Assembly (NCBI GenBank): GCA_020636645.1
Contig: JACJXO010000010.1
Span: forward strand, 814-64,813
Direction: 5' to 3'
Source of the DNA: Chitinophagales bacterium
GTDB lineage: Bacteria > Bacteroidota > Bacteroidia > Chitinophagales > BACL12
DNA: 64,000 nucleotides
In this document: positions 16,358 through 44,019 of the stretch, piece after piece
Layout of the letters: each line of letters opens with the position of its first letter
Numbering within the stretch: position 1 is the first letter of the stretch
Notes under the pieces: generated by a model
Told to the model about the DNA's origin: nothing
Seen by the model: only the letters and a program-made list of their open reading frames with translations
Databases searched by the model: none
Translations under genes and position numbers: made by a program

Positions 16358-16385
16358 GTATTTTCAATCCGACTTTTCCTACAAA

Positions 16386-20000: not shown

Positions 20001-20044
20001 GAAGACCACAGAGTCCCCTGCGGTTGACTCTGTGGGGACGGAAT
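19779..20044 (+). repeat. 266-bp CTD-stop-hairpin cassette, copy 2
   Basis: Hand alignment to copies 1 and 3 gives about 95% identity. The gene body immediately upstream is unrelated at the DNA level. Confidence 0.9.
20006..20035 (+). terminator. conserved stem-loop (copy 2)
   Basis: Identical to copy 1 (CCACAGAGTC CCCTGCGGTT GACTCTGTGG). Confidence 0.45.
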
Positions 20045-20088
20045 GTTATAACACATGCAGAGGTTAAACAATTTAAATTTATCAAACA

Positions 20089-25934: not shown

Positions 25935-26177
25935 ATGCTGGGCAAAAATTCCATGTTCCGAACGCAGAAGCCACGTAAGTTCACTTATGTGCCCATCTAC
26001 TGGGATCCGGAGAAGGAAGAAAAAGAGCAGAAGCAGCGCTGGCGTGAAACAGGCGGGGAAGAGTCGTCCATCCGGTTCAATGAGGAATTTCAATCCAAAA
26101 TGAACCGCAAAACGAACAATACCCGCATCCTGATCATCGTCATTCTGTTGCTGATACTCTTTATTTTCTTTTGGTGA
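25935..26177 (+). CDS. small C-terminally membrane-anchored hypothetical protein
   Basis: MLGKNSMFRTQKPRKFTYVPIYWDPEKEE... with the terminal TM ILIIVILLLILFIFFW. Sits just upstream of mutL. The start was chosen at an internal ATG. Confidence 0.4.
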   Translation: MLGKNSMFRTQKPRKFTYVPIYWDPEKEEKEQKQRWRETGGEESSIRFNEEFQSKMNRKTNNTRILIIVILLLILFIFFW

Positions 26178-26188
26178 ACTTTGCGGCC

Positions 26189-27988: not shown

Positions 27989-27997
27989 AAGAAAGAC

Positions 27998-30665: not shown

Positions 30666-30688
30666 AGCCTTCTTGGTATTTTTGTGCC

Positions 30689-32191
30689 ATGCCCAATGAA
30701 TTGTTCCACCAGAATGAACTGCTGGTCTATAATACCACGACCAGAAGCAAAGAGGTCTTCCGGCCACTGCATGCCCCGTTTGTAGGTATGTATGTGTGCG
30801 GCCCTACCGTGTACAGCGAACCGCACCTGGGCAACTGCCGCACCTTCGTGTCTTTTGATATGATCTACCGCTACCTGCGTCACCTGGGTTATAAGGTCAG
30901 GTATGTGCGGAATATCACGGATGCCGGACATATAGAAAGCACAGCAGGTACTACCGGCGACCGCATCTCTGAACAGGCCCGGCTGGAACAGGTGGAGCCT
31001 ATGGAGATCGTGCAGAAATACAGCACAGCCTTCCGGAACATCATGGCGAAGTTCAACGCCTTACCTCCGGATATTGAACCTACTGCTACCGGACATATCA
31101 TCGAGCAGATCGAGATGACCAAAGCCATTCTGGAAAGTGGCTATGCGTATGAGGTGGATGGCAATGTGTTCTTTGACGTAGAGAAATTTGCTAAAGATCA
31201 TCCCTATACCCAGCTGAGTGGCCGGAATCTGGAAGAGATGCTGAATAATACCAGAGACCTGGGCGGACAGGAACTCAAGAAAGGCCGCCTGGATTTTGCG
31301 TTGTGGATCAAGGCAAAACCCGAACACCTGCAGCGCTGGCCAAGTCCCTGGGGTGAAGGGTACCCCGGCTGGCATATCGAGTGTTCAGCCATGAGCACGA
31401 AGTATCTGGGTAAGCAATTCGATATTCACGGCGGTGGCATGGATCTTATTCCTACCCATCATACCAATGAGGTAGCGCAGAGTGTGGCCTGCAACCACAC
31501 CACACCGGTGCGCTATTGGCTGCATACCAATATGCTCACGGTGAACGGACAGAAAATGAGCAAGAGCCTGGGTAACAGCTTTCTTCCCGAAGAATTATTC
31601 TCCGGTTCACATCCGTTGCTGGACAGGGGCTATAGCCCTATGACCGTACGCTTCTTCATGTTGCAGGCGCATTACAGCAGTACGCTGGACTTCACCAATG
31701 AAGCGCTCCAGGCGGCGGAAAAAGGGTATCGCAGGCTGATGTCCATGCTGGAGAACCTGGAAGCACTGAAACCATCAGGTGCGGTAGACGATACCACAGA
31801 GAAAGCATTGAATGCTTCTATGTTGGCCATGTATGCGGGCATGAACAATGACTTCAATACTCCGCAGGCTATAGCGGCCATGAATGAAGCAAGTGCGCTG
31901 ATCAATACGGCAGCGCATACCGGCAGCGGAGAGATATCAGCTCGGCCAGACACCCTGGAACGGATGCAGAATACCTGTAGAACATTTGTATATGATGTTT
32001 TCGGATTGAAATCGGAAGACGATGCAGGTGGCGATGTACTGGACGGCGTCATGAACCTGGTCATTGATATCCGTAAAGAAGCCAGAAGCAACAAGGACTT
32101 TGCTACATCAGACAAGATCAGAGATGTACTCTCTGCGGTTGGTATCGTGCTAAAGGACAGTAAGGAAGGCACCACCTGGGAACAATCCTGA
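30689..32191 (+). CDS. cysS: cysteine--tRNA ligase
   Basis: HLGN (HIGH) and KMSKSLGN signatures, plus WPSPWGEGYPGWHIECS. Confidence 0.95.
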   Translation: MPNELFHQNELLVYNTTTRSKEVFRPLHAPFVGMYVCGPTVYSEPHLGNCRTFVSFDMIYRYLRHLGYKVRYVRNITDAGHIESTAGTTGDRISEQARLEQVEPMEIVQKYSTAFRNIMAKFNALPPDIEPTATGHIIEQIEMTKAILESGYAYEVDGNVFFDVEKFAKDHPYTQLSGRNLEEMLNNTRDLGGQELKKGRLDFALWIKAKPEHLQRWPSPWGEGYPGWHIECSAMSTKYLGKQFDIHGGGMDLIPTHHTNEVAQSVACNHTTPVRYWLHTNMLTVNGQKMSKSLGNSFLPEELFSGSHPLLDRGYSPMTVRFFMLQAHYSSTLDFTNEALQAAEKGYRRLMSMLENLEALKPSGAVDDTTEKALNASMLAMYAGMNNDFNTPQAIAAMNEASALINTAAHTGSGEISARPDTLERMQNTCRTFVYDVFGLKSEDDAGGDVLDGVMNLVIDIRKEARSNKDFATSDKIRDVLSAVGIVLKDSKEGTTWEQS

Positions 32192-32192: not shown

Positions 32193-32960
32193 ATGCAGGC
32201 ATTCGACCACGAAGTCCCTTATTATGACAGGCAATTCACCGATGCGCCTATAGGCCGTTTGCAGCGAAAGCTGGTCTGGCAGGTGCTGAAGCATTATTTG
32301 CCCGACCCTACGATGCAGGTGCTGGAGACCAACGCAGGTACAGGTCCCGACGCTCTTTGGTTGCAACAGGCAGGACACCGGGTGATACCTACGGATGCTT
32401 CTTCTGCCATGGTAGAACGCATGCGGAAGAAAGGACTGGATGCACACATCTGGGACATCAACGATACGGTTCCTGTAGAACTCAGGCAACAGCGATATGA
32501 TCTGGTGTTCTCGAATTTCAGTGGATGGAACTGTGTAGATGAGCAAGCACTTTCAGCGCTCTCAGATGAACTGGCGGAATGTACCACAGACAAAGCTGTT
32601 GTGGTGACCGTATTGTTCGGCCGATGGGTGGTTTGGGAATACCTGTATTTTTTCTTTCGTCTGCAGTGGAAACAGATCTTTCGAAGACTGCGCAAACAGA
32701 CCGATGCCTTTGTGGGAGGTACCACCATCCCGGTATGGTATCACCGGAAGAGAGATATGCAGACAGCATTCGATGCACATTTCGACCTGATCGCCCGTTA
32801 TCCGGTGGGCAGTTTTCTTCCCCCCACTTACCTGCAGCCACTGAATCGCTTCCGGGGGTTGCTGAAATTCCTGTTTCTGTTTGATACCCTGATGACCCGC
32901 TGGCGTATCTGCCCCGATACAGCTGATCATACGGTCTATGTCTTCCGTCGTAAGCCATAG
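32193..32960 (+). CDS. class I SAM-dependent methyltransferase
   Basis: Motif I region VLETNAGTGPDALWL and DLVFSNFSGWN. Starts 1 nt after the cysS stop. Confidence 0.7.
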   Translation: MQAFDHEVPYYDRQFTDAPIGRLQRKLVWQVLKHYLPDPTMQVLETNAGTGPDALWLQQAGHRVIPTDASSAMVERMRKKGLDAHIWDINDTVPVELRQQRYDLVFSNFSGWNCVDEQALSALSDELAECTTDKAVVVTVLFGRWVVWEYLYFFFRLQWKQIFRRLRKQTDAFVGGTTIPVWYHRKRDMQTAFDAHFDLIARYPVGSFLPPTYLQPLNRFRGLLKFLFLFDTLMTRWRICPDTADHTVYVFRRKP

Positions 32961-33009
32961 CAGGACAAACGATTGACCATCGCCCGCACCGAACTGCTAT
33001 CTTTAGGCT

Positions 33010-34374
33010 GTGCCGGGCATACTCTTTACACACGGCTATTTTCTGCAGGACGACGCAAAGGAGCAGCAGATCATGCGGCCCTATCCGCCGTTAGGCATGC
33101 TGTATGTATCGGCATGGCTAACGAAACATGACCTGGAAAACCGGGTTTTTGATACCACCTTTTCCACTATGGAAAAACTGCAGGAAGAAATACTGTCTTC
33201 CCGGCCTGAATTCCTTTGCCTGTATGTCAATCTGATGACCAGGGTGAACATCGTACGCATCCTGCATTGGATGCAGGAACAGATGCCGGAAACAGTGCTG
33301 ATCGTTGGCGGACCGGAAGTGCGTTACCACGCAGAGCAGCTGCTGGATCATGGAGCCGGTTATGTGGTGGTTGGGGAAGGCGAACAGACCTGTCTGGAAC
33401 TGATACAGGAATTGCAGCAAGGAAAAGAGCCCTTGCAGGTGAGCGGATTGATCTTTCGCACAGCCGATGGCACCATTCATCGCAGTGGTGAAAGACATAA
33501 GATCAAAGACCTGGATGAGCTGCCATTACCTGCCCGGGATAAGATAGATCTGCGCCTGTATCTGGATGCTTGGAAACAAAGGCATGGCATGAATGCCGTA
33601 TCGGTCAACACCATGCGGGGCTGTCCGTACAGCTGTAAATGGTGCAGTCGTGCGGTGTATGGTATGAGTTATCGCCGGCGCAGTGTGACTCATGTGGTGG
33701 ATGAATTGCTGCATATCAAAAAGACCTGGGCACCTGATACGTTGTGGTTCGTGGATGATGTGTTCACCGTCAGCCATAAGTGGCTGGCTGCCTTCTGTGA
33801 AGAAGTGACCGGTCGTGAAGCGGTCATCCCTTATGAATGCATCACCCGTGCCGACAGGATGAATGAAGAAGTGATACGCATGCTGAAGGCCAGCGGATGT
33901 TTCCGGGTATGGATCGGTGCAGAGAGTGGCAGCCAGAAGGTCATAGACCTGATGGACAGAAGGGTGGAAGTGGAGCAGGTTCGAAACATGATACAGCTTG
34001 CGAGGCAACACGGACTGGAAGCCGGCACCTTCATCATGCTGGGCTATCCGGGCGAAACGGAAGCAGATATTGAAGAGACCATCCGGCATCTGCAGCTGTC
34101 GCATCCTGATCATTACACCATCACAGTTGCCTATCCGATCAAGGGTACCGAACTGTATGCCGAAGTGGAGCCGCATTTCCTCAATGCGCCTGACTGGTCA
34201 ACCACCAGCGACAGGCAGCAGGATTTTGCCAGAACCTATTCCAGGAAATTCTATGACCATGCAGTGCGCTATGTGGTCAACAAGGTGGAGACCAGCAGAA
34301 CAAAAGGTTTCCGCTCTGTCAAACATCGGTTCAAGGCCGCGGCTGCAAAAAGCATGATGGCCATCAGCAAATAA
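33010..34374 (+). CDS. cobalamin-binding-domain (class B) radical SAM protein 1
   Basis: N-terminal ILFTHGYFL..PYPPLGMLYVSAWL (B12-binding-type Rossmann start). CxxxCxxC = CPYSCKWC. GTG start. Confidence 0.85.
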   Translation: MPGILFTHGYFLQDDAKEQQIMRPYPPLGMLYVSAWLTKHDLENRVFDTTFSTMEKLQEEILSSRPEFLCLYVNLMTRVNIVRILHWMQEQMPETVLIVGGPEVRYHAEQLLDHGAGYVVVGEGEQTCLELIQELQQGKEPLQVSGLIFRTADGTIHRSGERHKIKDLDELPLPARDKIDLRLYLDAWKQRHGMNAVSVNTMRGCPYSCKWCSRAVYGMSYRRRSVTHVVDELLHIKKTWAPDTLWFVDDVFTVSHKWLAAFCEEVTGREAVIPYECITRADRMNEEVIRMLKASGCFRVWIGAESGSQKVIDLMDRRVEVEQVRNMIQLARQHGLEAGTFIMLGYPGETEADIEETIRHLQLSHPDHYTITVAYPIKGTELYAEVEPHFLNAPDWSTTSDRQQDFARTYSRKFYDHAVRYVVNKVETSRTKGFRSVKHRFKAAAAKSMMAISK

Positions 34375-34406
34375 GACCGGAAACGGTTCGTTTAGTACAA
34401 GACCTC

Positions 34407-35432
34407 ATGCAAATACTGATACTGACACCCGGATTTCCGCAGGATGAACAGGATACCACCTGCATTCCTTTTCTGCAGGATTTTGTGTTGGGTATGTCTG
34501 AGCACCTGGGGGCGCCCCATATCAAGGTGATCAGCTTTCAGTATCCGTTCAGCGAGGCAAACTATACCTGGCATGAAGTGGAAGTTTTTTCTGCAGGAGG
34601 GCGAAACAAAAAGGGTATGCGCCGCATGTTCACCTGGCGCAGGGTGATGAAGCAGGCAGGCTTATGGATGACAGAAAATACGGTCATCCATTCCTTCTGG
34701 CTGACCGAAGCCACACTTATAGGTCAGCAGCTTCAGGAAAAGTACGGGTGCCGGCACATTGCTACCATCATGGGTCAGGATGTGTTGCCATCTAACCGTT
34801 ACCTGAAAAAACTATCGGCAGAAAAGATGTACATCGTTGCTCCGAATGAACGAACCGCTTCCTTATTGCATTCTCAGAAATTGCAGGAGTCGGCCATCAT
34901 CCCCCATGCCATCATGCCGCTGATTTTTGCCAGGCAACAACGAACCACTGACCTGATCTGGGTGGGTTCTTTCATTGCGTTAAAGCAACCGGAACAGTTT
35001 CTCCTGCTGGTGAAAGAATTGCTGTCAACAAATCCGGGCATCAGCTGCTGTATGATCGGTGAAGGCCCGCTGCTGAACAAGACAAAACAGAGAGCTGAGA
35101 GAGAAGAGCTGCCGGTTGAAATTTGTGGAAAGCTGGAACGGCCTGAAGTATTGCAACGTATGGAAAGAAGCCGGATCCTGGTGCATACCAGTAACTATGA
35201 AGGACATAGTACGGTTATCAGTGAAGCACTGTCTAAGGGCTGCAGGGTTGTTTGCTATGATGTGGGACATACCCATTCAGACCTGATCCATACAGCCGGC
35301 AACCTGGAACATATGACAAGGATCGTGGGTGCACTGCTGGATACAGATATGGAATACCTCCCTGTATATCCGGATCAGATGTCTGAGATGCTGCAGCAGT
35401 ACCTTGATCTCTATTCTGGTAGAACATACTGA
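34407..35432 (+). CDS. glycosyltransferase (GT-B fold, GT4-like)
   Basis: C-terminal Ex7E motif EGHSTVISEAL in a GT1/GT4-like context. Confidence 0.75.
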   Translation: MQILILTPGFPQDEQDTTCIPFLQDFVLGMSEHLGAPHIKVISFQYPFSEANYTWHEVEVFSAGGRNKKGMRRMFTWRRVMKQAGLWMTENTVIHSFWLTEATLIGQQLQEKYGCRHIATIMGQDVLPSNRYLKKLSAEKMYIVAPNERTASLLHSQKLQESAIIPHAIMPLIFARQQRTTDLIWVGSFIALKQPEQFLLLVKELLSTNPGISCCMIGEGPLLNKTKQRAEREELPVEICGKLERPEVLQRMERSRILVHTSNYEGHSTVISEALSKGCRVVCYDVGHTHSDLIHTAGNLEHMTRIVGALLDTDMEYLPVYPDQMSEMLQQYLDLYSGRTY

Positions 35433-35503
35433 ACTGCCTGATCCTGTTTGGATTTTCCATTTTTTTTTTGCATCTTTCTGATACACTCAAAACCCAACCA
35501 ACC

Positions 35504-36430
35504 ATGAAAAAAGTCCTTAAATGGATCGGTATCATCATACTGGTCCTGGTAGTCATTATTGTGGCGGCCATGTTCATGTTCAGAAGCAAGTACAAAAGTT
35601 TGGCCAATGAACGGTTCGAGGTCAATGTACCGGATATTGCTTTGCAGACAGATTCAGCCGGAATGGCTCGCGGTGAAATGCTGGCTACAGCATTATGCAC
35701 AGGATGCCATGGCGGAGATCTGGCCGGGAAAGATTTTTTCAATGACAAGACCATAGGTGTGGTCTATTCTGCCAATCTCACTCCCGGTGGTCCTACAGCA
35801 GCATGGAGCACAGAAGATTTTGTCAGGGCCATCAGATATGGTGTTCGACCGGATGGCAGCGGATTGTTCATCATGCCATCGCTGGAGTACAACCACATGA
35901 GTGATTATGATCTGGGTTGCCTCATAGCTTATTTGAGGTCATTGCCGGCATCTGATAATCCATCGCCGCCGGCAGAGTTCACTTTCATGGCTCAGGTCAT
36001 GGCAGGAGCAGGACTGTTCGGCGACCTGTACAGTGCTTCCGTGCTGGACCTGCAGGATGGATCAGCCAGAGAGCGACCCGAGGTGGGCGAAACACTTGCA
36101 TACGGAGAATACGTCATGCTTATAAGTGGTTGCCAGTCTTGCCATGGTGAAGCATTCAACGGAGCAAAATCACCTGATCCTGTGTCTCCTCCAGGTGGGA
36201 ATATCACACCTGCAGGAAATATCGGCAACTGGAACTATGACCAGTTTGCAGAAACCATGTGGACAGGAAAAACCCCGGAAGGGAAAGAGATGGATCCCAA
36301 GTTCATGCCATGGGATGGCATCAGGTTGCTGGGTGATACAGAAAAGAAGGCACTCTTTCTGTATCTGCAGAACCTGCCACCTAAGGAAGACTCGGAAGAT
36401 CTGGCGAGGTGGAAAGCGAAGAATTCATGA
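35504..36430 (+). CDS. membrane-anchored di-heme c-type cytochrome
   Basis: N-terminal TM WIGIIILVLVVIIVAAMFMF. Two CxxCH sites (CTGCH, CQSCH). Start moved to MKKVLKW. Confidence 0.85.
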   Translation: MKKVLKWIGIIILVLVVIIVAAMFMFRSKYKSLANERFEVNVPDIALQTDSAGMARGEMLATALCTGCHGGDLAGKDFFNDKTIGVVYSANLTPGGPTAAWSTEDFVRAIRYGVRPDGSGLFIMPSLEYNHMSDYDLGCLIAYLRSLPASDNPSPPAEFTFMAQVMAGAGLFGDLYSASVLDLQDGSARERPEVGETLAYGEYVMLISGCQSCHGEAFNGAKSPDPVSPPGGNITPAGNIGNWNYDQFAETMWTGKTPEGKEMDPKFMPWDGIRLLGDTEKKALFLYLQNLPPKEDSEDLARWKAKNS

Positions 36431-36500
36431 GTTGACAGTTGGCAGCTTGACCTGATGAAATCAGGACGGGCGGTTGGCAGTTACATTGATACATATTTGT

Positions 36501-36530
36501 AAAATGAGATGGTAAACACCATCTCATTTT
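36501..36530. terminator. strong bidirectional rho-independent terminator
   Basis: AAAATGAGATGGT-AAAC-ACCATCTCATTTT. Perfect 13-bp stem with A/T runs on both sides, 70 nt after the cytochrome c stop. Confidence 0.8.
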
Positions 36531-36629
36531 CATTTGATGCGCCACTCAGTCAATCTGTCGTTATATTTGTTTGTCGGTTACAAATGCATTTTCAAGGGGC
36601 CTTTGCCAACTGCCAACCACCAACTAACA

Positions 36630-38129
36630 ATGCTTCCTCGTATCATTCTTTTCAATCCCCGTGCCGCCAACCACAAGCCACGCATACCCAATTCCATTTT
36701 GTCATTGGCGGCAACCCTGGAAGGAAGATATGACTACGTGATGGTAGATGGAAATCTGGAGGCAGAGCCGTATGAAAAAATGGAGGCGTATGTCAGGCAG
36801 GGTTATGATACCCTTGCGGTCACAGTGATGCCCGGGCCACAGCTGAAGCAGGCCATCCCTTATACGAAGAAACTCAAAGAACGATTTCCTAAACTGGTCA
36901 CCATCTGGGGAGGATACTTTGCTTCCAACCAGTGGCAGGTTTGCATGGCTTCGGGATTTGTGGACTACCTGATCTATGGGCCCGGTGATGAAGCCTTCCC
37001 TTCTCTTATCAGATTATTACATACCGGTGGCGATCTGGGTGCCATCCCCAACCTGATATGGAAACTGTATGGCATGGTGCAGAAGAACCACAAGGATGAA
37101 CTGTATGACCAGGACACCCTTCTGCGTTTGCCCTATGACACACTGAACAGGTTCTATCCGCTCGAAAAATACCTGGGCAGGACCTGGCTGGGTGAAAAGA
37201 CCATTGCCTATCACAGCAGCGTAGGCTGTCCCTTCAAATGTGCTTTCTGCGGCATCGTACCGATCTACAATGCACGCTGGAAGGGAAAGAGTGCGGCAGG
37301 CATCTACCAGGATATCAAATACCTGAAAGACCAGTTTGGAGGTTCTGCCATAGAGTTTCATGACAACAACTTTTTTGTTTCAGAGAAACGCACGGTAGAA
37401 TTTTCCCGACTGATCAAAAGTGAGCAGATGATCTGGTGGGGGGAAGGACGTATTGACACCATTGATAAATACAGCGACCAGAGCCTGGCTCTTATGCGGG
37501 ATGCAGGTTGCAGGATGATCTTCTTTGGGGCAGAGACAGGTAACGACGAGATACTGGCCATGATGGACAAAGGAGGCACGCAGACGGGTGACCAGATCAA
37601 ACGCTTTGCAGCCAGGATGAAACGATTTGATATCATACCTGAGTATTCTTTTGTATTGGGTACTCCGGCAGCAACAGAAGCACAGGTGAACAGTCAGATC
37701 GATCAGGATATCGCCTTCATCCGGGAGATCAAAGAGATCAATCCCGATACCGAGATCATCATCTATGTGTATAGTCCGGTGCCTACTGAAGGGTCTGAAT
37801 TGTTCGAAGCCTGTAAGGCGAACGGATTCCAGTTTCCTGAACAACTCGAAGACTGGATCAGTCCTGCATGGGAATCTTTCGACCTGCGTAAGAACCCGCT
37901 CACACCCTGGCTGAAGCCGTATATGATAGAACGCATCAGGAATTTTGAAACAGTGCTTAACGGGTATTCACCTACGGTATCAGACATCAAACTGATGCCG
38001 GCCAGAAAAAGGCTGATGCGTTCTTTGAGCAGCTGGCGTTACCGGTCAGGGTTCTACCGGGCACCGCTGGAGATCAAAGCCCTGCAGAAGATCAGCCGTT
38101 ACCGGCAGCCGGAAATTGAAGGATTCTGA
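36630..38129 (+). CDS. cobalamin-binding-domain (class B) radical SAM protein 2
   Basis: MLPRIILFNPRA..IPNSILSLAATL start. CxxxCxxC = CPFKCAFC. Start moved from the track's 36534 to the ATG at 36630. Confidence 0.85.
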   Translation: MLPRIILFNPRAANHKPRIPNSILSLAATLEGRYDYVMVDGNLEAEPYEKMEAYVRQGYDTLAVTVMPGPQLKQAIPYTKKLKERFPKLVTIWGGYFASNQWQVCMASGFVDYLIYGPGDEAFPSLIRLLHTGGDLGAIPNLIWKLYGMVQKNHKDELYDQDTLLRLPYDTLNRFYPLEKYLGRTWLGEKTIAYHSSVGCPFKCAFCGIVPIYNARWKGKSAAGIYQDIKYLKDQFGGSAIEFHDNNFFVSEKRTVEFSRLIKSEQMIWWGEGRIDTIDKYSDQSLALMRDAGCRMIFFGAETGNDEILAMMDKGGTQTGDQIKRFAARMKRFDIIPEYSFVLGTPAATEAQVNSQIDQDIAFIREIKEINPDTEIIIYVYSPVPTEGSELFEACKANGFQFPEQLEDWISPAWESFDLRKNPLTPWLKPYMIERIRNFETVLNGYSPTVSDIKLMPARKRLMRSLSSWRYRSGFYRAPLEIKALQKISRYRQPEIEGF

Positions 38130-38812
38130 TGCGACGGATATACAAGTGGTACGCACATCATATACTGAGACCGCTGCTTGAAAGGAGGTTGCATAAAACA
38201 GTCCGGTATCAAAAATATGGCCTGGACATGCTGATCGAACCAGGCGTTTTTCATCCCGGTTTTTTCTACAGTACCGAATTTCTTTTACAAACGGTAAGGC
38301 AACGGATAGCGCAACAGGAAACCGTGCTGGAACTTGGTTGCGGAAGCGGACTCATCAGCCTGGTACTCGCGGCCGATGGTGCGCAGGTGACCGCTGCAGA
38401 CATCAATCCAGTTGCTGTGGATGCATTGCATCGCAATGCCGACCGAAATCAGATCATTCTCGAGATCATACAAAGCGATCTGTTCAGTGCACTGTCAGGC
38501 AGACGCTTTCATCATATACTCATCAATCCGCCATTCTATCCAAAGGATCCTGCAAACGATGCAGAAAGAGCATGGTTTTGCGGACAGGATTTTTCCTATT
38601 TCAAAAGACTGTTCACTGACCTGCCTTCCTATCTGCAGCAGGATGCTCAGGTGTGGATGGTATTGTCTGACGGATGTGATGTGAAAGAGATCAGTGCACT
38701 TGCGGCACAGGCGCATGCCCGTCTGGAAGAGGTAGCTACCACCGTGATCAGATGGGAACGATTGTGGGTGTTCCACATCATTTACCCGAATCTGACACAG
38801 GGAAATGTGTAA
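38129..38812 (+). CDS. SAM-dependent methyltransferase, HemK/RsmC-like small-domain type
   Basis: Motif I VLELGCGSGLISLVLA and motif IV NPPFYP. The start shares one nucleotide with the preceding stop. Confidence 0.75.
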   Translation: MRRIYKWYAHHILRPLLERRLHKTVRYQKYGLDMLIEPGVFHPGFFYSTEFLLQTVRQRIAQQETVLELGCGSGLISLVLAADGAQVTAADINPVAVDALHRNADRNQIILEIIQSDLFSALSGRRFHHILINPPFYPKDPANDAERAWFCGQDFSYFKRLFTDLPSYLQQDAQVWMVLSDGCDVKEISALAAQAHARLEEVATTVIRWERLWVFHIIYPNLTQGNV

Positions 38813-38829
38813 CAGTTAACTTCGTACGT

Positions 38830-39786
38830 ATGCATATCAGTCACCGGCATGAACATCTGCCCCGGCAATTGTCTGACATCCAGTCTGGGGTCATGTCGGC
38901 ACTGGTGTATTTTGATCTGTTCAGGTATCCGCTTACTGTGCCGGAGATCATCCGTTTTTCGCCGGTAAGGATCGATCGTCTGGAGCAGGTGGAAGAGGCG
39001 TTAAGGGAGCTGGGATCTGCTCTGATCGTTTTTCGTTTCGGCGATCATTATTCGTTGGTAAATGATATTGCCCGGGTGGAGAGGCGTAAGCTGGGTAATG
39101 CCTGTGCTGAAAAGTTCTGGATGAAGGCAAGGCGTATGTCTGTTTTAATGCAGCGTTTTCCTTATGTGCGAAGTGTGAATATTTCCGGTTCCCTGTCAAA
39201 GGAGTATGCCGATGATACAACCGATATAGACTATTTCATCATCACCGCACCCGGGCGTATCTGGTTGTGCCGCACGCTGCTTGCGTTGTATAAGAAGGTC
39301 TTTCTGCTCAACAGCAGAAAATACTTCTGCATCAACTATTTCATCAGTGAAGATGATCTGTCCATTCCTGACAAGAATCTGTTCTCTGCCACAGAGATCG
39401 TTACACTGCGCAACATGAGTGGTCAGTCAATATATGCCCGCTTTCTGGAGGAGAACAGATGGGCTTTCAGCCATTTTCCCAATGCATCTGCTGCAGATGG
39501 TATGCCTGTTCACACCCGTGGCAGACGCATGCAGAAGGCTGCAGAGAGGATCCTGGCTGGAAGATTTGGAAACCTGCTCGATGACCTGTGTTTTCGCATA
39601 ACGTTTTATTACTGGAAACGAAAATTTTCCTGGATGAGGGAGGAAGAGTTTGCAGTTAATATTCGTTCGAAGCGCACGGTTAGCAAACACCATCCGCAGG
39701 GGTTTCAGTTTCAGGTGATGGATCGTTTTGCACAAAGGTGTGCTGCACTGGAAGCACAACATGGTATAGTATTCATACATGGCTGA
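38830..39786 (+). CDS. hypothetical protein with Pol-beta-type nucleotidyltransferase signature
   Basis: NISGSLSKEYADDTTDIDYFIIT fits the pattern GS-x10-DxD. The rest is unrecognised. Start moved to MHISHRH. Confidence 0.55.
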   Translation: MHISHRHEHLPRQLSDIQSGVMSALVYFDLFRYPLTVPEIIRFSPVRIDRLEQVEEALRELGSALIVFRFGDHYSLVNDIARVERRKLGNACAEKFWMKARRMSVLMQRFPYVRSVNISGSLSKEYADDTTDIDYFIITAPGRIWLCRTLLALYKKVFLLNSRKYFCINYFISEDDLSIPDKNLFSATEIVTLRNMSGQSIYARFLEENRWAFSHFPNASAADGMPVHTRGRRMQKAAERILAGRFGNLLDDLCFRITFYYWKRKFSWMREEEFAVNIRSKRTVSKHHPQGFQFQVMDRFAQRCAALEAQHGIVFIHG

Positions 39787-41212
39787 TATCCTGCTCTCCA
39801 ATACCTACTTTTTGCGATTCGATCCGAAACAGGAGTCGAACATGACACCTTATCCGCCGCTGGCTACCTTATATGCAGCATCTGTATTGCGTGATGAGGG
39901 AATGGATGTTGCCTTGTTTGATACACAGTTTGCTGAAGGTGCAGAAGATGCCTTTCCTCAGATCAAAGCACATGCAGGAAAGCTTTTTATGATCGTGGAC
40001 GACGGCTTCAACTATCTGACGAAGATGTGTCTGGTCAATATGAGGGAAGCCTGTTTCACCATGATCAGATATGCCAAAGAGCAGGGCTGTACAGTGGCTG
40101 TTTCCAGCTCAGATGCAACCGATCATATGGATGCTTACCTGCAAGAAGGTGCTGATTACATCATAGTAGGAGAAGCAGAGCAAACCATTCGTGAACTGGT
40201 TGTTTGTCTGGATGCAAAACAACCGACTGACGGTGTGAGCGGTCTGGCTTGTTCTGCCAATGGGGGAATGCACAAAACATTGCCTCGTCAGGTACTGACC
40301 CATCTGGACAGTCTTCCTCAACCTGCCTGGGATCTGATAGATATTCAAGCCTATCGCAGCAGATGGATGCAGAAGCACGGATACTTTTCACTCAATGTGG
40401 CCACCACACGCGGCTGCCCGTTTAAGTGTAACTGGTGCGCCAAACCGATCTATGGTAACAGGTATAATGCTCATAGTGCGCATTATATCATGGATCAGAT
40501 CGAGCTGCATGTGAAACAGCATGGTGCTACACATATCTGGTTCTGCGATGATATTTTCGGATTAAAACCCGGCTGGATACATGCATTCCGAGAAGAAGCT
40601 GAAAGGAGGCAGCTTGTATTCCGTTTCAAGATACAATGCCGTGCAGATCTGCTGCTCAATGAAAACAACATTGCCGATCTGGCTGCTGCAGGTTGTGATG
40701 AGATCTGGATAGGTGCAGAGAGCGGCTCTCAGATGATACTCGATGCCATGGATAAAGGCACAACCATAGAGCAGATCAGAGAAAGCACCATGTTGATGAA
40801 AAAGCATGGTATTAAACCTTGTTTCTTTTTACAGTTTGGTTATCCGGGCGAAACCAGGAAGGAGATCAGAGAAACCATTGACCTGGTAACAGGGCTTCTG
40901 CCTTTTGATATTGGAATTTCTGTAAGCTATCCCTTGCCAGGTACGGTCTTTTATGATCGTGTTCAGGCAGGCCTGAAACAAAAGACCAACTGGACAGACA
41001 GTGATGAGCTGGCTATGATGTTTGCCGGCACATATTCTCCTGAATACTATAAGAAACTGCATCGGTATGTACACCGCCGGTTCAGAAAAGCACAGGGAGC
41101 CTGGTATCTGAAGCAGGTGTTCAAGGGTGAGCCGACCGATCTGCGCCGGATCATGTTATGGCCATACTATGCTGTCCGGGTGATGGTTGATGATCAGCTG
41201 GTAAGTGATTAG
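39779..41212 (+). CDS. cobalamin-binding-domain (class B) radical SAM protein 3 (paralog of protein 1)
   Basis: ILLSNTYFL..PYPPLATLYAASVL. CxxxCxxC = CPFKCNWC. IWIGAESGSQ is shared with protein 1. Overlaps the previous gene by 8 nt. Confidence 0.85.
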   Translation: MADILLSNTYFLRFDPKQESNMTPYPPLATLYAASVLRDEGMDVALFDTQFAEGAEDAFPQIKAHAGKLFMIVDDGFNYLTKMCLVNMREACFTMIRYAKEQGCTVAVSSSDATDHMDAYLQEGADYIIVGEAEQTIRELVVCLDAKQPTDGVSGLACSANGGMHKTLPRQVLTHLDSLPQPAWDLIDIQAYRSRWMQKHGYFSLNVATTRGCPFKCNWCAKPIYGNRYNAHSAHYIMDQIELHVKQHGATHIWFCDDIFGLKPGWIHAFREEAERRQLVFRFKIQCRADLLLNENNIADLAAAGCDEIWIGAESGSQMILDAMDKGTTIEQIRESTMLMKKHGIKPCFFLQFGYPGETRKEIRETIDLVTGLLPFDIGISVSYPLPGTVFYDRVQAGLKQKTNWTDSDELAMMFAGTYSPEYYKKLHRYVHRRFRKAQGAWYLKQVFKGEPTDLRRIMLWPYYAVRVMVDDQLVSD

Positions 41213-44019
41213 CGCACCAGGGTGATATTACCTGCTACAGTTTTCTTGTCGCCTTCAATGAACTTCAGTTCCATGATGTAACTATACACTCCTGCATTGA
41301 CCATATTGCCATTGGTGGTAGTGCCGTTCCAGCCAATACCCGGATCGTTGGCCGGAAAATCTTCAATAAGGAATATCAGTTCACCCCATCGATCAAAGAT
41401 GCGCAGATTCTGCACCAGTATCAGATTAGGACCATAGGCTGTGAAATGGTCATTGATGTGGTCGCCGTTCGGGGTGAAGGTATTTGGCACGAAAGAATAA
41501 TCTTCCGGATCGGGCAGTACGGTAATATAAATATCATCGGTAGCTACGCATCCGTTGTTGTTGTATGAGGTAAGAATGATGGGTCCTGACTGGATTGGGT
41601 TGGCAATGGTACTGTCGCAGGTAGAACACGCCACTGATTCTGCCGGGCTCCAGTTATAATCGCCGCCGGTAATGCCATAGATAGGCGTTCCAAAACCTAT
41701 GATCATTTCTGCTGACCCGAAGGCAGATGCTTCATTAGCATCCACATCTATGAACATGGTGGTGTCACTGGTGCAGCCATTTGCATCTGTGTAGGTATAG
41801 GTGATGGCATAAGGCCCGCCAACACCTGCGGTCAGCACATCAAATGTGCTGCCGCTTACAAATGAACCGGTAAAGCTTCCTCCTGCCGGTGTGGCAATGA
41901 GTGGTTGTATTTGTTGTTCATAGCAGACCACTTCAGGAAGATCAAAGACAAGTGAGGGGTTTGGGTTCACTGTAAGGTTGGTAGTGATCACAGAGTCGCA
42001 GCCAAAAATGGTGGTGTATTCATTCACATAAGAGCCTGAAACGGTAGTAACGGAACCATCAGGCAGGATATATTCTTCGCCATCACAGATCTCTTCATCG
42101 ATCGTGGTATAGATCACGTCCAGTTCTTCCACAGTGGTATAAATGATAGAATCACAACCATCTACAGTGGTCAGGGTCGTACTGTAAAATCCGCCGGAAA
42201 CCACAGTACCATCAGGCAGGGTATAGGTGGTGCCGGTGCATATTCCTGCGGTCACATCAACGGCATAGACCGGATACAGATTCAGTGTGGTATGAACCAG
42301 AGAGTCGCAGCCTGTCCAGGCTGTAAGAACAGAAGTATAATCGCCGGCTGACCCTGTGATCACGCCATCAGGAAGCACGTACAGGTCTCCGTCGCAGATG
42401 TACACCACTTCGCTTGTTTCAGGAATAGGCAGCACAGACAGGGTCGTATTTACAACAGAATCGCAGCCGTATATGCTGCTCAGCGTGCTGCTGTAGGTAC
42501 CTGCAGCGGTAACTGATACGCCGTCAGGTAAGACATAGGTATCGCCATCACAGATCTCTGCATCTACATCTACATCAAATACCGGATGCACGGTCAAAAA
42601 GGTGGTAATGACTGAATCACAACCCGCGTCTGTGGTCAGGGAAGATACATATTCGCCGGCGGCAGAAACGGTCAGACCGCTGGGCAGGGTATAGGTCTCG
42701 CCGCTGCATATCTCAGCCAGAGTGACCAGATCATACACCGGGAATATTTCTATAGTGGTGGTAAAATAGTCTTCATCACATCCGCCACCAGCAGGAATGG
42801 TATTGGTTACGGTATAGGTGCCGGGACTTGAAGCAGCCACATTGACAGTACCCGTTGCAGCATTGATGCTCAGGCCTGCCGGGGTAGCACTGAATGTTCC
42901 GGTTTCTGATCCGGGATCAAGTGAAATGGGTGCACTGCCTGCATCGTTGCAGAAAGGTGTACCCGGGTAGCTGAAATTGCCAACGGGTGCCGGATTGATA
43001 ATAATGGTTACACTGGATGAAAGTGTATCCAGACCACAGCTTTCAGTAATGACGGTGTTCGTAATTGTATAGGTACCCGGAGTAGAAGCACTGAGGTCAA
43101 CTACACCTGTAGTATCAGAAACAAACACAAGGCCGGCAGGACTTGCGGTAAAAATGCCAATTTCAGCTCCGGGAACAAGTTCCGGCCCCGGATCAAGGCC
43201 GGAGGAGCAGTATTCAGGGAAAAATCCTATACCTGTTTCCGGAAAAGAAAACAAAGAGGTGACGCTGGTTCCCAGGCTATTGGCTTTCAGAAAAACACCC
43301 GAATCGAAAGAGTGGTCAAACTCGTCGGCTATGGCCAGTTTCAGGTGATAGGTCTCACCGGGAGTGACGGCTGATACAGCAGTGAGCGGAACAGTAAAGC
43401 CATCATACTGGATGTAGTAAGGGTCGCCGGCAGGTACACCGGTGTTGTTGTGGTAATATGCCGGGTAACTGCCCAGATTCACATTATCAATGGTAACCGG
43501 CAGAGCTGTTCCGGGAATGAGGGCGATGTTGACCATGCCAACGATGCCGGGCCCGCTGATCCAGAACGCAAAGGCATCATTGATAGAACCTACATATTCA
43601 TTGTACTCCTCACTTCCAAAGACATAATCAAAGGAGATGGTATCACATTCCGGTATGATATCCAATTCAAATACACAGCGATCGTAAGTAGTTCCTACAC
43701 CCGGAAGTGCATTCAGGTCAGGATCGCCGGTCAGACCTGAGTTATACCCCAGGCTGCCGGAGTTGTTGGGACCTTCTGCATTGATCACTTTGCCGGTGGT
43801 CAGAATGAACCCGGAATCAATGCCCAGGTTACAATCAATGCATTCAAAAAGTCCAAAACCCTGCGAATAGCAATCAATGGTCGCATCCACGATCTCAATA
43901 CCCGAACCCACCAGGGTCTCAGCCAGATCCATTGCAGTGTAGCCGTAAGTACAGTCCAGCTGTGACTTACCCGGAAGCCAGACCCCCAGTAACAATATGA
44001 CAGGTATAAATCGTTTCAT
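41209..44019 (-). CDS. large T9SS type B (gliding-motility C-terminal domain) cargo with choice-of-anchor-L-like N-domain
   Basis: N-domain GFILTTG...YVFGSEEYNEYVGSINDAFAFWISG. C-terminal FVPNTFTPNGDHINDHF...FDRWGELIF...GWNGT...GVYSY. Confidence 0.85.
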   Translation of the reverse strand: MKRFIPVILLLGVWLPGKSQLDCTYGYTAMDLAETLVGSGIEIVDATIDCYSQGFGLFECIDCNLGIDSGFILTTGKVINAEGPNNSGSLGYNSGLTGDPDLNALPGVGTTYDRCVFELDIIPECDTISFDYVFGSEEYNEYVGSINDAFAFWISGPGIVGMVNIALIPGTALPVTIDNVNLGSYPAYYHNNTGVPAGDPYYIQYDGFTVPLTAVSAVTPGETYHLKLAIADEFDHSFDSGVFLKANSLGTSVTSLFSFPETGIGFFPEYCSSGLDPGPELVPGAEIGIFTASPAGLVFVSDTTGVVDLSASTPGTYTITNTVITESCGLDTLSSSVTIIINPAPVGNFSYPGTPFCNDAGSAPISLDPGSETGTFSATPAGLSINAATGTVNVAASSPGTYTVTNTIPAGGGCDEDYFTTTIEIFPVYDLVTLAEICSGETYTLPSGLTVSAAGEYVSSLTTDAGCDSVITTFLTVHPVFDVDVDAEICDGDTYVLPDGVSVTAAGTYSSTLSSIYGCDSVVNTTLSVLPIPETSEVVYICDGDLYVLPDGVITGSAGDYTSVLTAWTGCDSLVHTTLNLYPVYAVDVTAGICTGTTYTLPDGTVVSGGFYSTTLTTVDGCDSIIYTTVEELDVIYTTIDEEICDGEEYILPDGSVTTVSGSYVNEYTTIFGCDSVITTNLTVNPNPSLVFDLPEVVCYEQQIQPLIATPAGGSFTGSFVSGSTFDVLTAGVGGPYAITYTYTDANGCTSDTTMFIDVDANEASAFGSAEMIIGFGTPIYGITGGDYNWSPAESVACSTCDSTIANPIQSGPIILTSYNNNGCVATDDIYITVLPDPEDYSFVPNTFTPNGDHINDHFTAYGPNLILVQNLRIFDRWGELIFLIEDFPANDPGIGWNGTTTNGNMVNAGVYSYIMELKFIEGDKKTVAGNITLVR
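41962..42717 (-). repeat. five tandem ~52-aa Cys-containing repeats inside the type B cargo
   Basis: ICxGxxYxLPDGxxVxxxGxYxxxLxxxxGCDSxxxTxL recurs at residues ~437, 489, 541, 593 and 644. Confidence 0.8.

Follow-up and report, generated by a model that had tools for sequence, protein, structure and literature searches.

This window, a 64,000-nt stretch of a Chitinophagales bacterium genome, raises the question of what is made by a run of co-directional genes that follows cysS and contains three radical SAM enzymes. An earlier note on this DNA counted nine genes after cysS and proposed tailoring of a lipid or glycan. On the + strand downstream of cysS, eight co-directional genes were counted. 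They encode three B12-domain radical SAM enzymes, two methyltransferases, a Pol-beta-type nucleotidyltransferase (NTase), a GT4 glycosyltransferase and a di-haem cytochrome c. The features are as follows.

30689..32191, + strand: cysS, cysteine--tRNA ligase (TIGR00435, 427.7 bits against a cut-off of 340)
32193..32960, + strand: MT1, class-I SAM methyltransferase (Methyltransf_25, 33.2 bits)
33010..34374, + strand: rSAM1, B12-binding-domain radical SAM enzyme (PF02310, 47.6 bits; PF04055, 79.6 bits)
34407..35432, + strand: GT4-family glycosyltransferase (Glycos_transf_1, 54.1 bits)
35504..36430, + strand: membrane-anchored di-haem cytochrome c (two CxxCH; Cytochrome_CBB3 and Cytochrom_C matches)
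36501..36531, + strand: terminator-like hairpin 3' of the cytochrome c gene (stem-loop and U-rich tract)
36562..36569, + strand: TATATTTG, Bacteroidota -7-type promoter motif 5' of rSAM2 (TAnnTTTG match, suggestive only)
36627..38129, + strand: rSAM2, B12-binding-domain radical SAM enzyme (PF02310, 36.2 bits; PF04055, 39.4 bits)
38129..38812, + strand: MT2, MTS/HemK-like methyltransferase (MTS, 71.3 bits; NPPF motif)
38830..39786, + strand: NTase, Pol-beta/MNT-type with an N-terminal winged-helix domain (GS..D.D motif, family PF01909)
39779..41212, + strand: rSAM3, radical SAM enzyme with a diverged B12-type N-terminal domain (PF04055, 76 bits)

Direct reading confirmed the ORFs, coordinates and junctions that the earlier note had given. 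The cysS stop codon TGA ends at 32191 and the MT1 ATG begins at 32193, leaving a gap of 1 nt. At 38127-38131, TGATG gives the rSAM2 stop and the MT2 start one common base, and the last 8 nt of the NTase gene (39779-39786) are also the first 8 nt of rSAM3. Start sites were set by homolog lengths and by gene calls on a near-identical contig. The revised starts are at about 35504 for cytochrome c, about 36627 for rSAM2 (500 aa) and about 38830 for NTase (318 aa).

Eighty related loci served for comparison; they come from Chitinophagales, Flavobacteriales, Saprospirales and others. Among them, across several orders, an NTase-rSAM3-MT1-rSAM1 core is preserved in order and strand, often accompanied by rSAM2-MT2 and GT4. 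NTase and rSAM3 are adjacent in 66 of the 80 loci. MT1 was found in 60 loci, rSAM1 in 46, MT2 in 31, rSAM2 in 25 and GT4 in 24. With so many short contigs, all of these counts, the 66 included, are minimum values. The idea of a conserved eight-gene unit held for seven of the flagged genes, which form a gene module conserved in many Bacteroidota, and failed for the di-haem cytochrome c, of which none of the 80 loci has a homolog. Recurrence of this order and strand across dozens of genomes and several orders puts the arrangement far beyond chance. The median identity was 62% for rSAM2 (25 loci), 55% for rSAM1 and 53% for rSAM3, compared with 69% for cysS (its four loci). These levels indicate that the module enzymes are under purifying selection. 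Housekeeping neighbours of the clusters include mutL, rhomboid genes and cysS, and a radical SAM/SPASM gene occurs in 4 loci. The enzymes are nearly as conserved as a tRNA synthetase, unlike typical hypervariable O-antigen/capsule loci, which speaks against a glycan product. We found no published description of the module, which is not a categorically new system.

All three radical SAM enzymes carry the CxxxCxxC cluster that the earlier note had recognised (CPYSCKWC in rSAM1, CPFKCAFC in rSAM2 and CPFKCNWC in rSAM3). rSAM1 and rSAM3 are indeed paralogs (35% full-length identity, E 5e-91), whereas rSAM2 shares just 21-27% identity with each of them. A B12-binding-type N-terminus with a PYPPLG-type motif had been ascribed to all three enzymes. 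The motif is present in rSAM1 (PYPPLGMLY) and rSAM3 (PYPPLATLY) and absent from rSAM2. The B12-binding domain was matched in Pfam by rSAM1 and rSAM2 but scored 19.9 bits in rSAM3, under the threshold of 32.1 bits, which many rSAM3 orthologs do pass. DDGFNYLTKMCL and SSD.TDH are conserved motifs specific to the rSAM3 orthogroup. Within the set, conservation is highest for rSAM2, the partner of MT2. Its 120 best-scoring matches have 65-84% identity, except for one near-identical copy (99%); they are from Chitinophagales wherever a source is named, and their names are generic only.

The earlier note had left room for an established family. In the HMM check, no radical SAM protein of the module reached the curated cut-off of a named family, including BchE, HpnJ, HpnR, PhpK and the ladderane-type family. 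For rSAM1, BchE came closest in NCBIfam, but its 160 bits fall short of the cut-off of 481 and leave rSAM1 outside the named families. The best match of rSAM2 was HpnJ (94.6 bits against 577.6). BchE, HpnJ and the lipid family of the ladderane type scored about equally with rSAM1 and rSAM3, and all these scores of the radical SAM proteins, 95-160 bits, lay far below the family cut-offs of 360-650. AprD4 was the best PDB sequence match of all three enzymes (E from 5e-23 to 5e-11), and MgmA was the second-best of rSAM1. The AlphaFold model of rSAM3 (pLDDT 81.6) matched MgmA, TsrM, OxsB and AprD4 with query-normalised TM values of 0.58-0.70 and Foldseek E values of 1e-16 to 1e-18, MgmA (9ccb) being the top structural match (Foldseek E 3.7e-18, TM 0.58-0.65). 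MgmA, the second-best relative, modifies a protein, an observation against a glycan substrate. AprD4 works without cobalamin, so a B12-type domain alone is no proof of B12 use.

MT1 was seen in 60 of the 80 loci, almost always immediately 5' of rSAM1, and its SAM motif LE.N.GTG.DA is kept in at least 95% of 52 orthologs. The NPP of MT2 is kept in at least 95% of 31 orthologs. The best PDB sequence matches of MT2 were HemK and RsmC; aminoglycoside N-methyltransferases (apramycin, gentamicin GenN type) and the RlmG and TrmN models also matched. Its NPPF motif is that of amino-methyltransferases. GT4 has an ortholog close to the core in 24-25 loci, which makes it a frequent companion. It is the sole glycosyltransferase and the sole glycan gene found in the window; no phosphoglycosyltransferase, flippase, GT-C or Wzy_C was seen among the large ORFs scanned in the 64 kb.

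The NTase is the signature gene of the module and the partner of rSAM3. Residues G120 S121 ... D132 x D134 of its GS..D.D motif are invariant. At 50% identity, the NTase family falls into 1202 clusters (E <= 1e-30). PF01909 was matched by 17 of 22 members and Polbeta by 15 of 22; the window NTase itself had no Pfam match. The structures nearest to its AlphaFold model (pLDDT 88.9) were MntA, DrrA, GlnE, LinB and AAD(9), all weak matches with none at E <1e-3. These nearest folds are protein AMPylators and antibiotic nucleotidyltransferases, which, weak as the matches are, runs against a glycan role.

The NTase occurs in natural fusions to a Bac_transf polyprenyl-phosphate phosphoglycosyltransferase (PGT; P0287), to GT4 (P0320, GT4::NTase) and to a class-I methyltransferase (P0340). 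The PGT fusion lies in GT4-GT4-Wzy_C-[PGT::NTase]-epimerase (L083). The GT4 fusion follows PGT, two Wzy_C and RgpF as [GT4::NTase]-rSAM3 ... B12-rSAM, and the methyltransferase fusion lies in Wzz-Wzy_C-[MT::NTase]-rSAM3-MT1-rSAM1. Glycan families were counted as polyprenyl-P-sugar-synthase-type GT2, GT-C, Wzy_C and PglK/MsbA-like ABC exporters. By raw count, at least one glycan assembly/export gene was present within 10 kb in 37 of the 49 loci of at least 15 kb. At least two glycan gene families were present in 24 of these 49 loci, whereas the surroundings of 12 held no recognisable glycan gene. Only 2 loci had a phosphoglycosyltransferase. The cluster-linked GT2 proteins scored best to AglJ, PpgS and dolichyl-P-hexose transferase. 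In Flavobacteriaceae, one operon holds the core followed by GT2, GT87/GT-C and a polytopic membrane protein that matched no family; the L045 operon reads NTase-rSAM3-(313-aa ORF)-MT1-rSAM1-lipoprotein-GT2-GT87-membrane protein. PglK and MsbA were the top-scoring full-length matches of the cluster-adjoining ABC exporters, which carry no peptidase (C39) domain.

The earlier note had reported neither a precursor peptide nor a squalene/hopene cyclase, and both statements stood: the clusters of the 80 loci and their surroundings held no conserved small ORF resembling a precursor, and no cyclase was found in the window or among recurrent neighbours. The NTase fusions, the glycan genes in 37 of 49 loci and the lack of a precursor-like ORF argue for a lipid-linked surface glycan and not a RiPP. 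Of the "lipid or glycan" proposed earlier, context and fusions favour the glycan or glycoconjugate; specific support for a lipid concerns only a probable lipid carrier.

We propose, at about even confidence, that the module tailors a sugar of a cell-envelope glycoconjugate on a polyprenyl-phosphate carrier at the cytoplasmic membrane face. Domain make-up, conserved order and strand, fusions and neighbours were observed; the product and its substrate, the step order, any cobalamin use and the reaction type (C-methylation or rearrangement) are our inference. A glycosyltransferase would place the sugar, GT4 in this window and a polyprenyl-phosphate-sugar-synthase-type GT2 in Flavobacteriaceae. 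The NTase may then put a nucleotide on a hydroxyl or phosphate of the intermediate as a handle for rSAM3. Such a nucleotide step has a precedent in Fom1, which cytidylylates the substrate of the B12-radical-SAM methylase Fom3. The two methyltransferase/radical-SAM pairs would next act, with heteroatom methylation most likely at an amino or amide nitrogen for MT2, given its NPPF motif, and with C-methylation or rearrangement by the radical SAM partners at unactivated carbons. Flippase, GT-C and Wzy_C-type proteins, encoded beside the module in relatives and presumably elsewhere in this genome, would flip the product and transfer it outside the cytoplasm. The glycan reading is supported by AprD4, the closest solved radical SAM relative by sequence, which acts on a sugar, and by the resemblance of MT2 to aminoglycoside sugar N-methyltransferases. 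Against it stand the single glycan gene of the window, the 12 long loci with none nearby and the presence of a phosphoglycosyltransferase in only 2 loci. In addition, we know of no B12-radical-SAM enzyme with a demonstrated role in surface-polysaccharide assembly. A 2026 review of B12-radical-SAM enzymes does not mention such a role.

Several known systems share parts of this scheme. Fom1/Fom3 of fosfomycin biosynthesis likewise pair a nucleotidyl transfer enzyme with a B12-domain radical SAM enzyme. The radical SAM methylase of that pathway requires CMP on its substrate. However, the NTase has a Pol-beta/MNT fold (PF01909) other than the cytidylyltransferase fold of Fom1, the module lacks PEP mutase or any other phosphonate gene, and its best scores to the PhpK family reach 78-154 bits of the 600 required. 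The likeness would be functional only. AprD4, GenK/GenD1 and GenN also combine B12-type-domain radical SAM enzymes acting on sugar rings with GT4s and N-methyltransferases. In contrast to these aminoglycoside systems, the module has no 2-deoxy-scyllo-inosose synthase or aminotransferase genes and is chromosomal, widespread and placed amid housekeeping or surface-glycan genes; aligned-core identity is below about 20%. The GT2, GT87/GT-C and membrane protein after the Flavobacteriaceae core recall ArnC/ArnT, GtrB/GtrA/Gtr and mycobacterial PpgS with its GT-C partner. As happens in the Arn pathway, modification by cytoplasmic enzymes could precede the flipping of the carrier-linked sugar. These three-part systems, however, are without radical SAM enzymes or a Pol-beta NTase, and the window has GT4 replacing GT2 and no GT-C or flippase gene.

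In HpnI/HpnK/HpnJ (hopanoid cyclitol ether) and Sulfolobus calditol synthase, a radical SAM enzyme rearranges a lipid-bound sugar after a glycosyltransferase. HpnJ is the top NCBIfam match of rSAM2, but the radical SAM scores of the module are 95-142 bits against the cut-off of 577.6 and no hopanoid genes are present; to our knowledge, Bacteroidota are generally without hopanoids. MgmA and Mmp10 are B12-radical-SAM methylases of methyl-coenzyme M reductase, a methanogen protein. MgmA heads the structural matches of the rSAM3 model and ranks second by sequence for rSAM1, but TIGR04014 gives 31-110 bits where 360 is required, and the context here is glycan assembly.

It seems unlikely that the end product is a membrane glycolipid, in which GT4 would glycosylate a lipid and the radical SAM enzymes would remodel or C-methylate the sugar head group. 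A GT4 as the window's only glycosyltransferase, the HpnJ score of rSAM2 and the roughly equal BchE, HpnJ and ladderane-type scores of rSAM1 and rSAM3 would fit this, as would lipid export by PglK/MsbA-like exporters and the housekeeping-like conservation, which suits a structural membrane component. However, the scores of 95-160 bits stand against family cut-offs of 360-650, neither the window nor the recurrent neighbours hold a squalene-hopene cyclase or lipid-backbone gene, and fusions and neighbours of the phosphoglycosyltransferase, Wzz, Wzy_C and GT-C types belong to carrier-linked glycan assembly. A protein or ribosomal peptide encoded elsewhere, subject to radical SAM C-methylation, MT2 amide N-methylation and NTase AMPylation, is a quite unlikely target. 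MgmA, Mmp10 and PoyB/C are B12-radical-SAM enzymes that C-methylate side chains. The structural and sequence ranks of MgmA agree with this target, together with the closeness of MT2 to HemK protein glutamine methyltransferases, the AMPylators MntA, DrrA and GlnE among the nearest NTase folds and the radical SAM/SPASM gene of 4 loci. Yet none of the 80 loci has a conserved small ORF in or near its cluster, no peptidase-containing exporter, RiPP recognition element or leader peptidase gene was found, the exporters are without C39, glycosyltransferases and glycan assembly proteins recur as partners, and the NTase is fused to a phosphoglycosyltransferase and GT4.

The wide distribution, high cross-order conservation and housekeeping neighbours are unlike a secondary-metabolite island, which makes a free aminoglycoside-like or pseudo-sugar metabolite, with the NTase as a self-resistance or activation enzyme, very improbable. 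GT4, AprD4-like radical SAM enzymes, a GenN-like N-methyltransferase and an ANT/Lin-like NTase fold do resemble aminoglycoside pathways, but cyclitol synthase and aminotransferase genes are missing, and the sole sugar-nucleotide-type gene seen, the L083 epimerase, does not recur among neighbours. Modification of tRNA or rRNA would have MT2 as an RsmC/TrmN-type base N-methyltransferase, the NTase on RNA ends and a meaningful position of cysS. Pol-beta NTases do include RNA-end-modifying enzymes, the RsmC, RlmG and TrmN models match MT2 and cysS lies 1 nt upstream, but cysS adjacency is limited to 4 of 80 loci and GT4, GT2, GT-C, Wzy_C and phosphoglycosyltransferase partners or fusions make no sense for RNA, so that we regard it as highly improbable. 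The probability of a chance juxtaposition of unrelated genes is negligible. Cytochrome c and cysS are unrelated neighbours indeed, but the other seven genes recur in order and strand in dozens of genomes of different orders and show natural fusions; for this seven-gene set, recurrent synteny and fusions refute chance.

cysS is an upstream co-directional neighbour outside the module, and the 4 loci in which it adjoins the cluster are all from close Chitinophagales. A TAnnTTTG motif is located at 30677-30684, 5' of cysS, and TATATTTG is one of only two + strand matches in 30-41 kb. Across the window, 26 such motifs were found against about 33 expected, i.e. not above chance, and a promoter role of TATATTTG upstream of rSAM2 is suggestive only. 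The CxxCH motifs of the cytochrome c are CTGCH and CQSCH. The hairpin after its gene has a perfect 13-bp stem and a 4-nt loop followed by the U-rich tract, and the fold containing it (36490-36545) reached -18.5 kcal/mol (z = -5.4). In the closest relatives (loci L003-L006), rSAM2 comes directly after GT4 at a distance of 15-64 nt, with no cytochrome gene between them. Because it is never conserved in the 80 loci and is followed by a terminator-like hairpin, the cytochrome c looks like a lineage-specific insert outside the conserved module.

Every long ORF between positions 30689 and 41212 of the window lies on the + strand. The genes of this run and the one that follows it are as follows.

Gene run in the window (alternative start codons are separated by a slash)
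30689-32191, + strand, cysS (TIGR00435 428 bits, above its cut-off)
32193-32960, + strand, methyltransferase MT1
33010-34374, + strand, rSAM1, a radical SAM enzyme with a B12-type N-terminus
34407-35432, + strand, GT4 glycosyltransferase
35468/35504-36430, + strand, di-haem cytochrome c
36534/36627-38129, + strand, rSAM2, a second radical SAM enzyme of this type
38129-38812, + strand, methyltransferase MT2
38752/38830-39786, + strand, nucleotidyltransferase-like (NTase) protein
39779-41212, + strand, rSAM3, a third radical SAM enzyme of this type
41209-44019, convergent T9SS cargo gene after rSAM3

For the three genes with two possible start codons, the downstream position is better placed. 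The gene junctions described in the earlier note (1 nt between cysS and MT1, one nucleotide shared by rSAM2 and MT2, an 8-nt overlap of the NTase gene and rSAM3) were exact on inspection, and the three CxxxCxxC motifs and two CxxCH motifs were present as claimed. The number of genes after cysS had been given as nine and is eight. The PYPPLG-type motif assigned to all three radical SAM proteins is missing from rSAM2. The rSAM1 and rSAM3 proteins are true paralogs, as had been proposed (35% identity, E 5e-91), and rSAM2 is only distantly related to the two.

With one genome scanned per GTDB species, at least 503 genomes contained a relative, and the best 80 loci were kept. Gene presence was scored by tblastn with the window proteins, and the following counts are lower bounds, as many contigs are short. 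The NTase gene was found in 80/80 loci (median identity to the window protein 42%), with rSAM3 directly downstream of it in 66/80 (53%). MT1 was present in 60/80 loci (32%), rSAM1 in 46/80 (55%), MT2 in 31/80 (39%), rSAM2 orthologs in 25/80 (62%), and GT4 in 24/80 (33%). These median identities indicate that the radical SAM enzymes are under strong constraint. The recurrent order [rSAM2-MT2]-[NTase-rSAM3]-[MT1-rSAM1] consists of three pairs with one radical SAM gene each. The co-conservation that the earlier note asked about thus holds for these seven genes, referred to here as the module, and fails for cytochrome c, with homologs in 0/80 loci. Linkage of cysS was ruled out by its adjacency in just 4/80 loci (69%).

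The carriers include Terrimonas, Panacibacter, and Flavisolibacter in the Chitinophagales; Kordia, Winogradskyella, Tenacibaculum ovolyticum, Dokdonia, and Lacinutrix in the Flavobacteriaceae; and Saprospiraceae, some Bacteroidales, and one Kapaibacterium MAG. They represent marine Flavobacteriaceae, soil and sludge Chitinophagales, and Saprospirales. Among the best 80 loci from the at least 503 genomes, the closest genomic relatives of the window are Chitinophagales MAGs, and the window also matches contigs of activated-sludge and wastewater metagenomes. The region before cysS (26171-30665) carries mutL, two rhomboid-family genes, and an EEP-family phosphatase/nuclease gene. Of these, the second rhomboid gene and the EEP gene lie ahead of cysS in the same order in locus L006, and the EEP gene also precedes cysS in L004 and L007. 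In this lineage, the module thus lies in a housekeeping neighbourhood.

The window cytochrome c looks like an insert. After its gene come a perfect 13-bp hairpin and a U-rich tract, contained in the fold of 36490-36545 (−18.5 kcal/mol, z = −5.4), and then a TATATTTG motif 58 nt ahead of the rSAM2 start; this motif is only suggestive because it is not enriched window-wide. The lack of homologs in the 80 loci, together with the hairpin and the promoter motif 3′ of the gene, ruled it out as a module member. In the closest relatives (L003-L006), rSAM2 begins 15–64 nt after GT4. The gene run is probably two transcription units. The Rfam scan of the window, cobalamin riboswitches included, gave no match, and the scan for sigma-70 promoters and terminators is uninformative for Bacteroidota. 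The region occurred in one RNA run as a single 18.6-kb metatranscriptome contig with genes on both strands and flat depth; this contig may be DNA carry-over and carries no information on operon structure. At the MT1 3′ end (32867-32892), the window has 12 substitutions in 26 nt relative to the metagenome and metatranscriptome contigs, which agree with each other. These changes overlap a hairpin-like site (32853-32873) and resemble a patch of local variation or a small tract of recombination.

Non-homologous genes that encode c-type haem motifs are found repeatedly next to the module, which may be a coincidence or may point to a periplasmic redox partner. A lipoprotein of approximately 380 aa with an invariant CxWCH, without a family or PDB match, was found in 13 loci (L010, L017, L025, L030, L033, L045, L056, L057, L062, L069, L075, L076, and L082; e.g. 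L062:6618-7781). The window di-haem cytochrome (35504-36430) occupies the same slot between GT4 and rSAM2 as this lipoprotein does in L062 and L025. Lipoprotein cytochromes c of approximately 120 aa lie just upstream of the NTase gene in L012, L017, L045, and L047.

In the rSAM1-3 proteins, a Rossmann-type B12-binding domain (PF02310) at the N-terminus precedes a radical SAM core that carries CxxxCxxC. This architecture does not by itself prove cobalamin use, since AprD4 has the same B12-type domain yet uses no cobalamin. Pfam thresholds were passed by rSAM1 and rSAM2 for both domains. rSAM3 passed PF04055 and stayed below the threshold for PF02310 (19.9 vs 32.1 bits), which many of its orthologs pass. 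The predicted rSAM3 structure (pLDDT 81.6) aligned over both domains to MgmA, TsrM, OxsB, and AprD4 with query-normalised TM scores of 0.58–0.70; the model confirms the two-domain architecture and does not discriminate between functions. rSAM3 has SSD.TDH where rSAM1 has the GGP motif. The closest solved structures by sequence are AprD4 and MgmA (9ccb), then CysS, TsrM, OxsB, and TokK. AprD4 is a sugar diol-dehydratase. MgmA is a protein glutamine C-methylase (PMC11796369).

Profile searches against named radical SAM families, which the earlier note had proposed, gave NCBIfam scores far below the curated cut-offs throughout. For BchE (TIGR02026), rSAM1, rSAM2, and rSAM3 scored 160.2, 88.3, and 110.8 bits against a cut-off of 481.35, and no bch genes were found in the window. 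The JGI name 'anaerobic Mg-protoporphyrin IX monomethyl ester cyclase', given to homologs, is a generic over-annotation. In the same order, the scores were 141.9, 94.6, and 108.9 bits for HpnJ (cut-off 577.6) and 132.3, 30.1, and 60.2 bits for HpnR (cut-off 650). A squalene-hopene cyclase gene was found neither in the window nor among the recurrent neighbours, and the proteins fall outside the hopanoid enzymes HpnJ, HpnR, and HpnP. The PhpK family of P-methyltransferases scored 153.8, 78.5, and 95.0 bits (cut-off 600), and PEP mutase was absent from the window genes and recurrent neighbours. The ladderane-type lipid B12-radical SAM family (TIGR04072) scored 143.4, 42.4, and 96.1 bits (cut-off 360), and BzaD, ApyD, and other named families were also far under their cut-offs. 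Each protein scores similarly against many families, and rSAM1-3 are therefore clades of their own within the BchE-like section of the superfamily.

MT2 has the class-I fold and (D/N)PP(Y/F) motif of HemK/MTS amino-group methyltransferases (MTS 71.3 bits). The window protein has NPPF, and at least 95% of the 31 orthologs conserve NPP. None of the equivalog models reached its cut-off with MT2.

The window NTase itself gave no Pfam or NCBIfam match, as the single protein scores under the detection level. Its relatives numbered 2780 at 90% clustering, and an exhaustive profile search (E ≤ 1e-30) gave 1202 clusters at 50% identity. An alignment of 22 sequences showed invariant G120, S121, D132, and D134, forming G-S ... 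D-x-D; PF01909 was matched by 17/22 members and Polbeta by 15/22. The members match these families and not LicD, which ruled out a LicD-type phosphotransferase. In the predicted structure (pLDDT 88.9), a minimal NTase core is flanked by a winged helix at the N-terminus and a helical domain at the C-terminus. The structure weakly matched MntA, DrrA, GlnE, LinB, and AAD(9) (best Foldseek E 7.8e-3), with the core matching MntA and HalB. The NTase profile found no match among PDB sequences, even at E 10. The protein is a Pol-beta/MNT-type nucleotidyltransferase (PF01909, PF18765) of an undescribed subfamily. In L046, L061, L066, L070, L074, L080, and L081, the 10 kb around the NTase homolog contain no radical SAM gene; these stand-alone loci, from Lewinellaceae, Saprospiraceae, and others, indicate that the link between the family and rSAM3 is not strict.

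All ORFs of the 80 loci were clustered, and the recurrent families were annotated. They comprise GT4, GT2 with best scores to AglJ, PpgS, and dolichyl-P-hexose transferase, GT-C enzymes (GT87 and PMT_2), Wzy_C of the O-antigen ligase/polymerase type, PglK/MsbA-like ABC exporters without a peptidase domain, further methyltransferases, sulfotransferase-like proteins, the lipoprotein with CxWCH (380 aa), and a polytopic membrane protein of approximately 390 aa. The last has no Pfam, NCBIfam, or PDB match; its label 'Wzx-like' was dropped for this reason, and only its position makes it a candidate flippase. By family HMMs, one or more glycan assembly/export genes lay within 10 kb in 37 of the 49 loci of at least 15 kb. 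Two or more glycan gene families were present in 24 of the 37, and no glycan gene was seen in the other 12 long loci. The L045 genes run as one tight operon of NTase, rSAM3, a 313-aa ORF, MT1, rSAM1, the lipoprotein, GT2, GT87, and the membrane protein. GT4 is the only glycan gene of the window.

The strongest evidence for a glycan target comes from natural NTase fusions. The exhaustive search found the NTase domain fused to a Bac_transf polyprenyl-phosphate phosphoglycosyltransferase (L083), to GT4 (L084), and to a class-I methyltransferase (L085). The fusions lie in polysaccharide loci with Wzz, Wzy_C, RgpF, and additional glycosyltransferases. The gene directly after the fused NTase is rSAM3 in two of the three loci: in L085, where MT1 and rSAM1 come next, and in L084, where a further B12-radical SAM gene lies downstream. 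The search for phosphoglycosyltransferases across the 80 loci found none beyond L083 and L084. Parts for assembly on a carrier lipid (PpgS/AglJ-type GT2, GT87, PMT_2, Wzy_C, Wzz, PglK/MsbA-like ABC exporters, and the fused phosphoglycosyltransferase) are spread over the loci, and no single locus was found to have a complete set. The module would join a glycan assembly locus with B12-radical-SAM tailoring, each of a known kind. An extra NodU/CmcH-type carbamoyltransferase gene was found in L084 (14472-16235), and an extra amidohydrolase and a further methyltransferase gene in the Panacibacter locus (L086:5818-6972), which suggests lineage-specific elaboration of the same product.

The seven conserved proteins lack signal peptides, as judged from their sequences, and look cytoplasmic. 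The chemistry would then precede export and take place on the inner side of the membrane, on a carrier-lipid-bound sugar or a nascent glycan. A division of labour is suggested by the three conserved pairs. The NTase may ready the rSAM3 substrate by nucleotidylation, by analogy with Fom1/Fom3, a precedent for nucleotidylation preparing a radical SAM substrate, in which the NTase fold is different. MT2, with its NPPF motif, could methylate an amino or amide nitrogen, and MT1 another heteroatom. rSAM1 and rSAM2 may carry out C-methylation or rearrangement at unactivated carbons. We tentatively propose, as a possible but rather doubtful reading, that many Bacteroidota use B12-type radical SAM chemistry on carrier-lipid sugars. 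A conserved envelope glycan would thereby gain C-alkyl groups, or a ring that is rearranged or carbocyclic, with the Pol-beta NTase supplying a transient nucleotide handle for one radical enzyme.

The high conservation is unlike that of typical O-antigen loci, and a conserved core structure would fit better, for example an LPS core, the core of a protein O-glycan, or a glycolipid. A protein or peptide target is kept as a rival to the carrier-lipid sugar, as MgmA, HemK, and AMPylators are protein-modifying relatives of the module enzymes. The search for a conserved small ORF of 20–110 aa in the 80 loci and the window found none, the only recurring matches being antisense shadows of the radical SAM genes. 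The earlier statement that no short precursor-peptide ORF is visible in the intergenic gaps is borne out in and beside the clusters, though a precursor could be encoded at a distance.

B12-domain radical SAM enzymes are among the largest pools of enzymes with unknown chemistry, and to our knowledge nearly all characterised members belong to antibiotic, cofactor, or methanogen protein-modification pathways. Bacteroidota mostly scavenge B12. If the proposal is true, bacterial surface-glycan assembly would have its first radical SAM/B12 pathway, and cell-surface composition in Bacteroidota would be tied to vitamin B12 supply. A decorated envelope glycan would mean a new substrate class for B12-radical-SAM enzymes and a new sugar modification that bears on recognition by phages and predators, gliding, T9SS surface biology, and glycan biomarkers. 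No description of the module was found in the full-text literature, the coverage of which is incomplete, so an earlier description is possible. A term search of a February 2026 review of B12-radical-SAM enzymes (PMC12931638) also found no such module, and neither source described a glycan or lipid system of this type in Bacteroidota. The module is of interest as it is widespread, strongly conserved, and experimentally tractable. The culturable carriers Panacibacter ginsenosidivorans, Kordia periserrulae DSM 25731, Tenacibaculum ovolyticum DSM 18103, Winogradskyella flava KCTC 52348, and Terrimonas species make the question directly testable. In P. ginsenosidivorans, the locus lies at around 540-561 kb of CP042435.1.

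Elsewhere in the window, the − strand region 9674-12330 encodes an SBF/Acr3-like transporter, a Methyltransf_31 protein (ArsM-like), and an adjoining metallophosphoesterase, and looks like an arsenic detoxification set. A 1035-aa protein (21579-24686, − strand) has a GH3 glycoside hydrolase domain fused to a beta-lactamase-fold domain and could be a NagZ-like/AmpH-like cell-wall recycling protein. T9SS cargo genes (Por_Secre_tail or CHU_C) are unusually dense, at 6-1655, 2237-5347, 13134-21348, and 41209-44019, and include three tandem BNR/sortilin-like paralogs (17207-21348). Low-GC patches of 0.40–0.43, against about 0.50, lie at 1-2000 and 14–18 kb.
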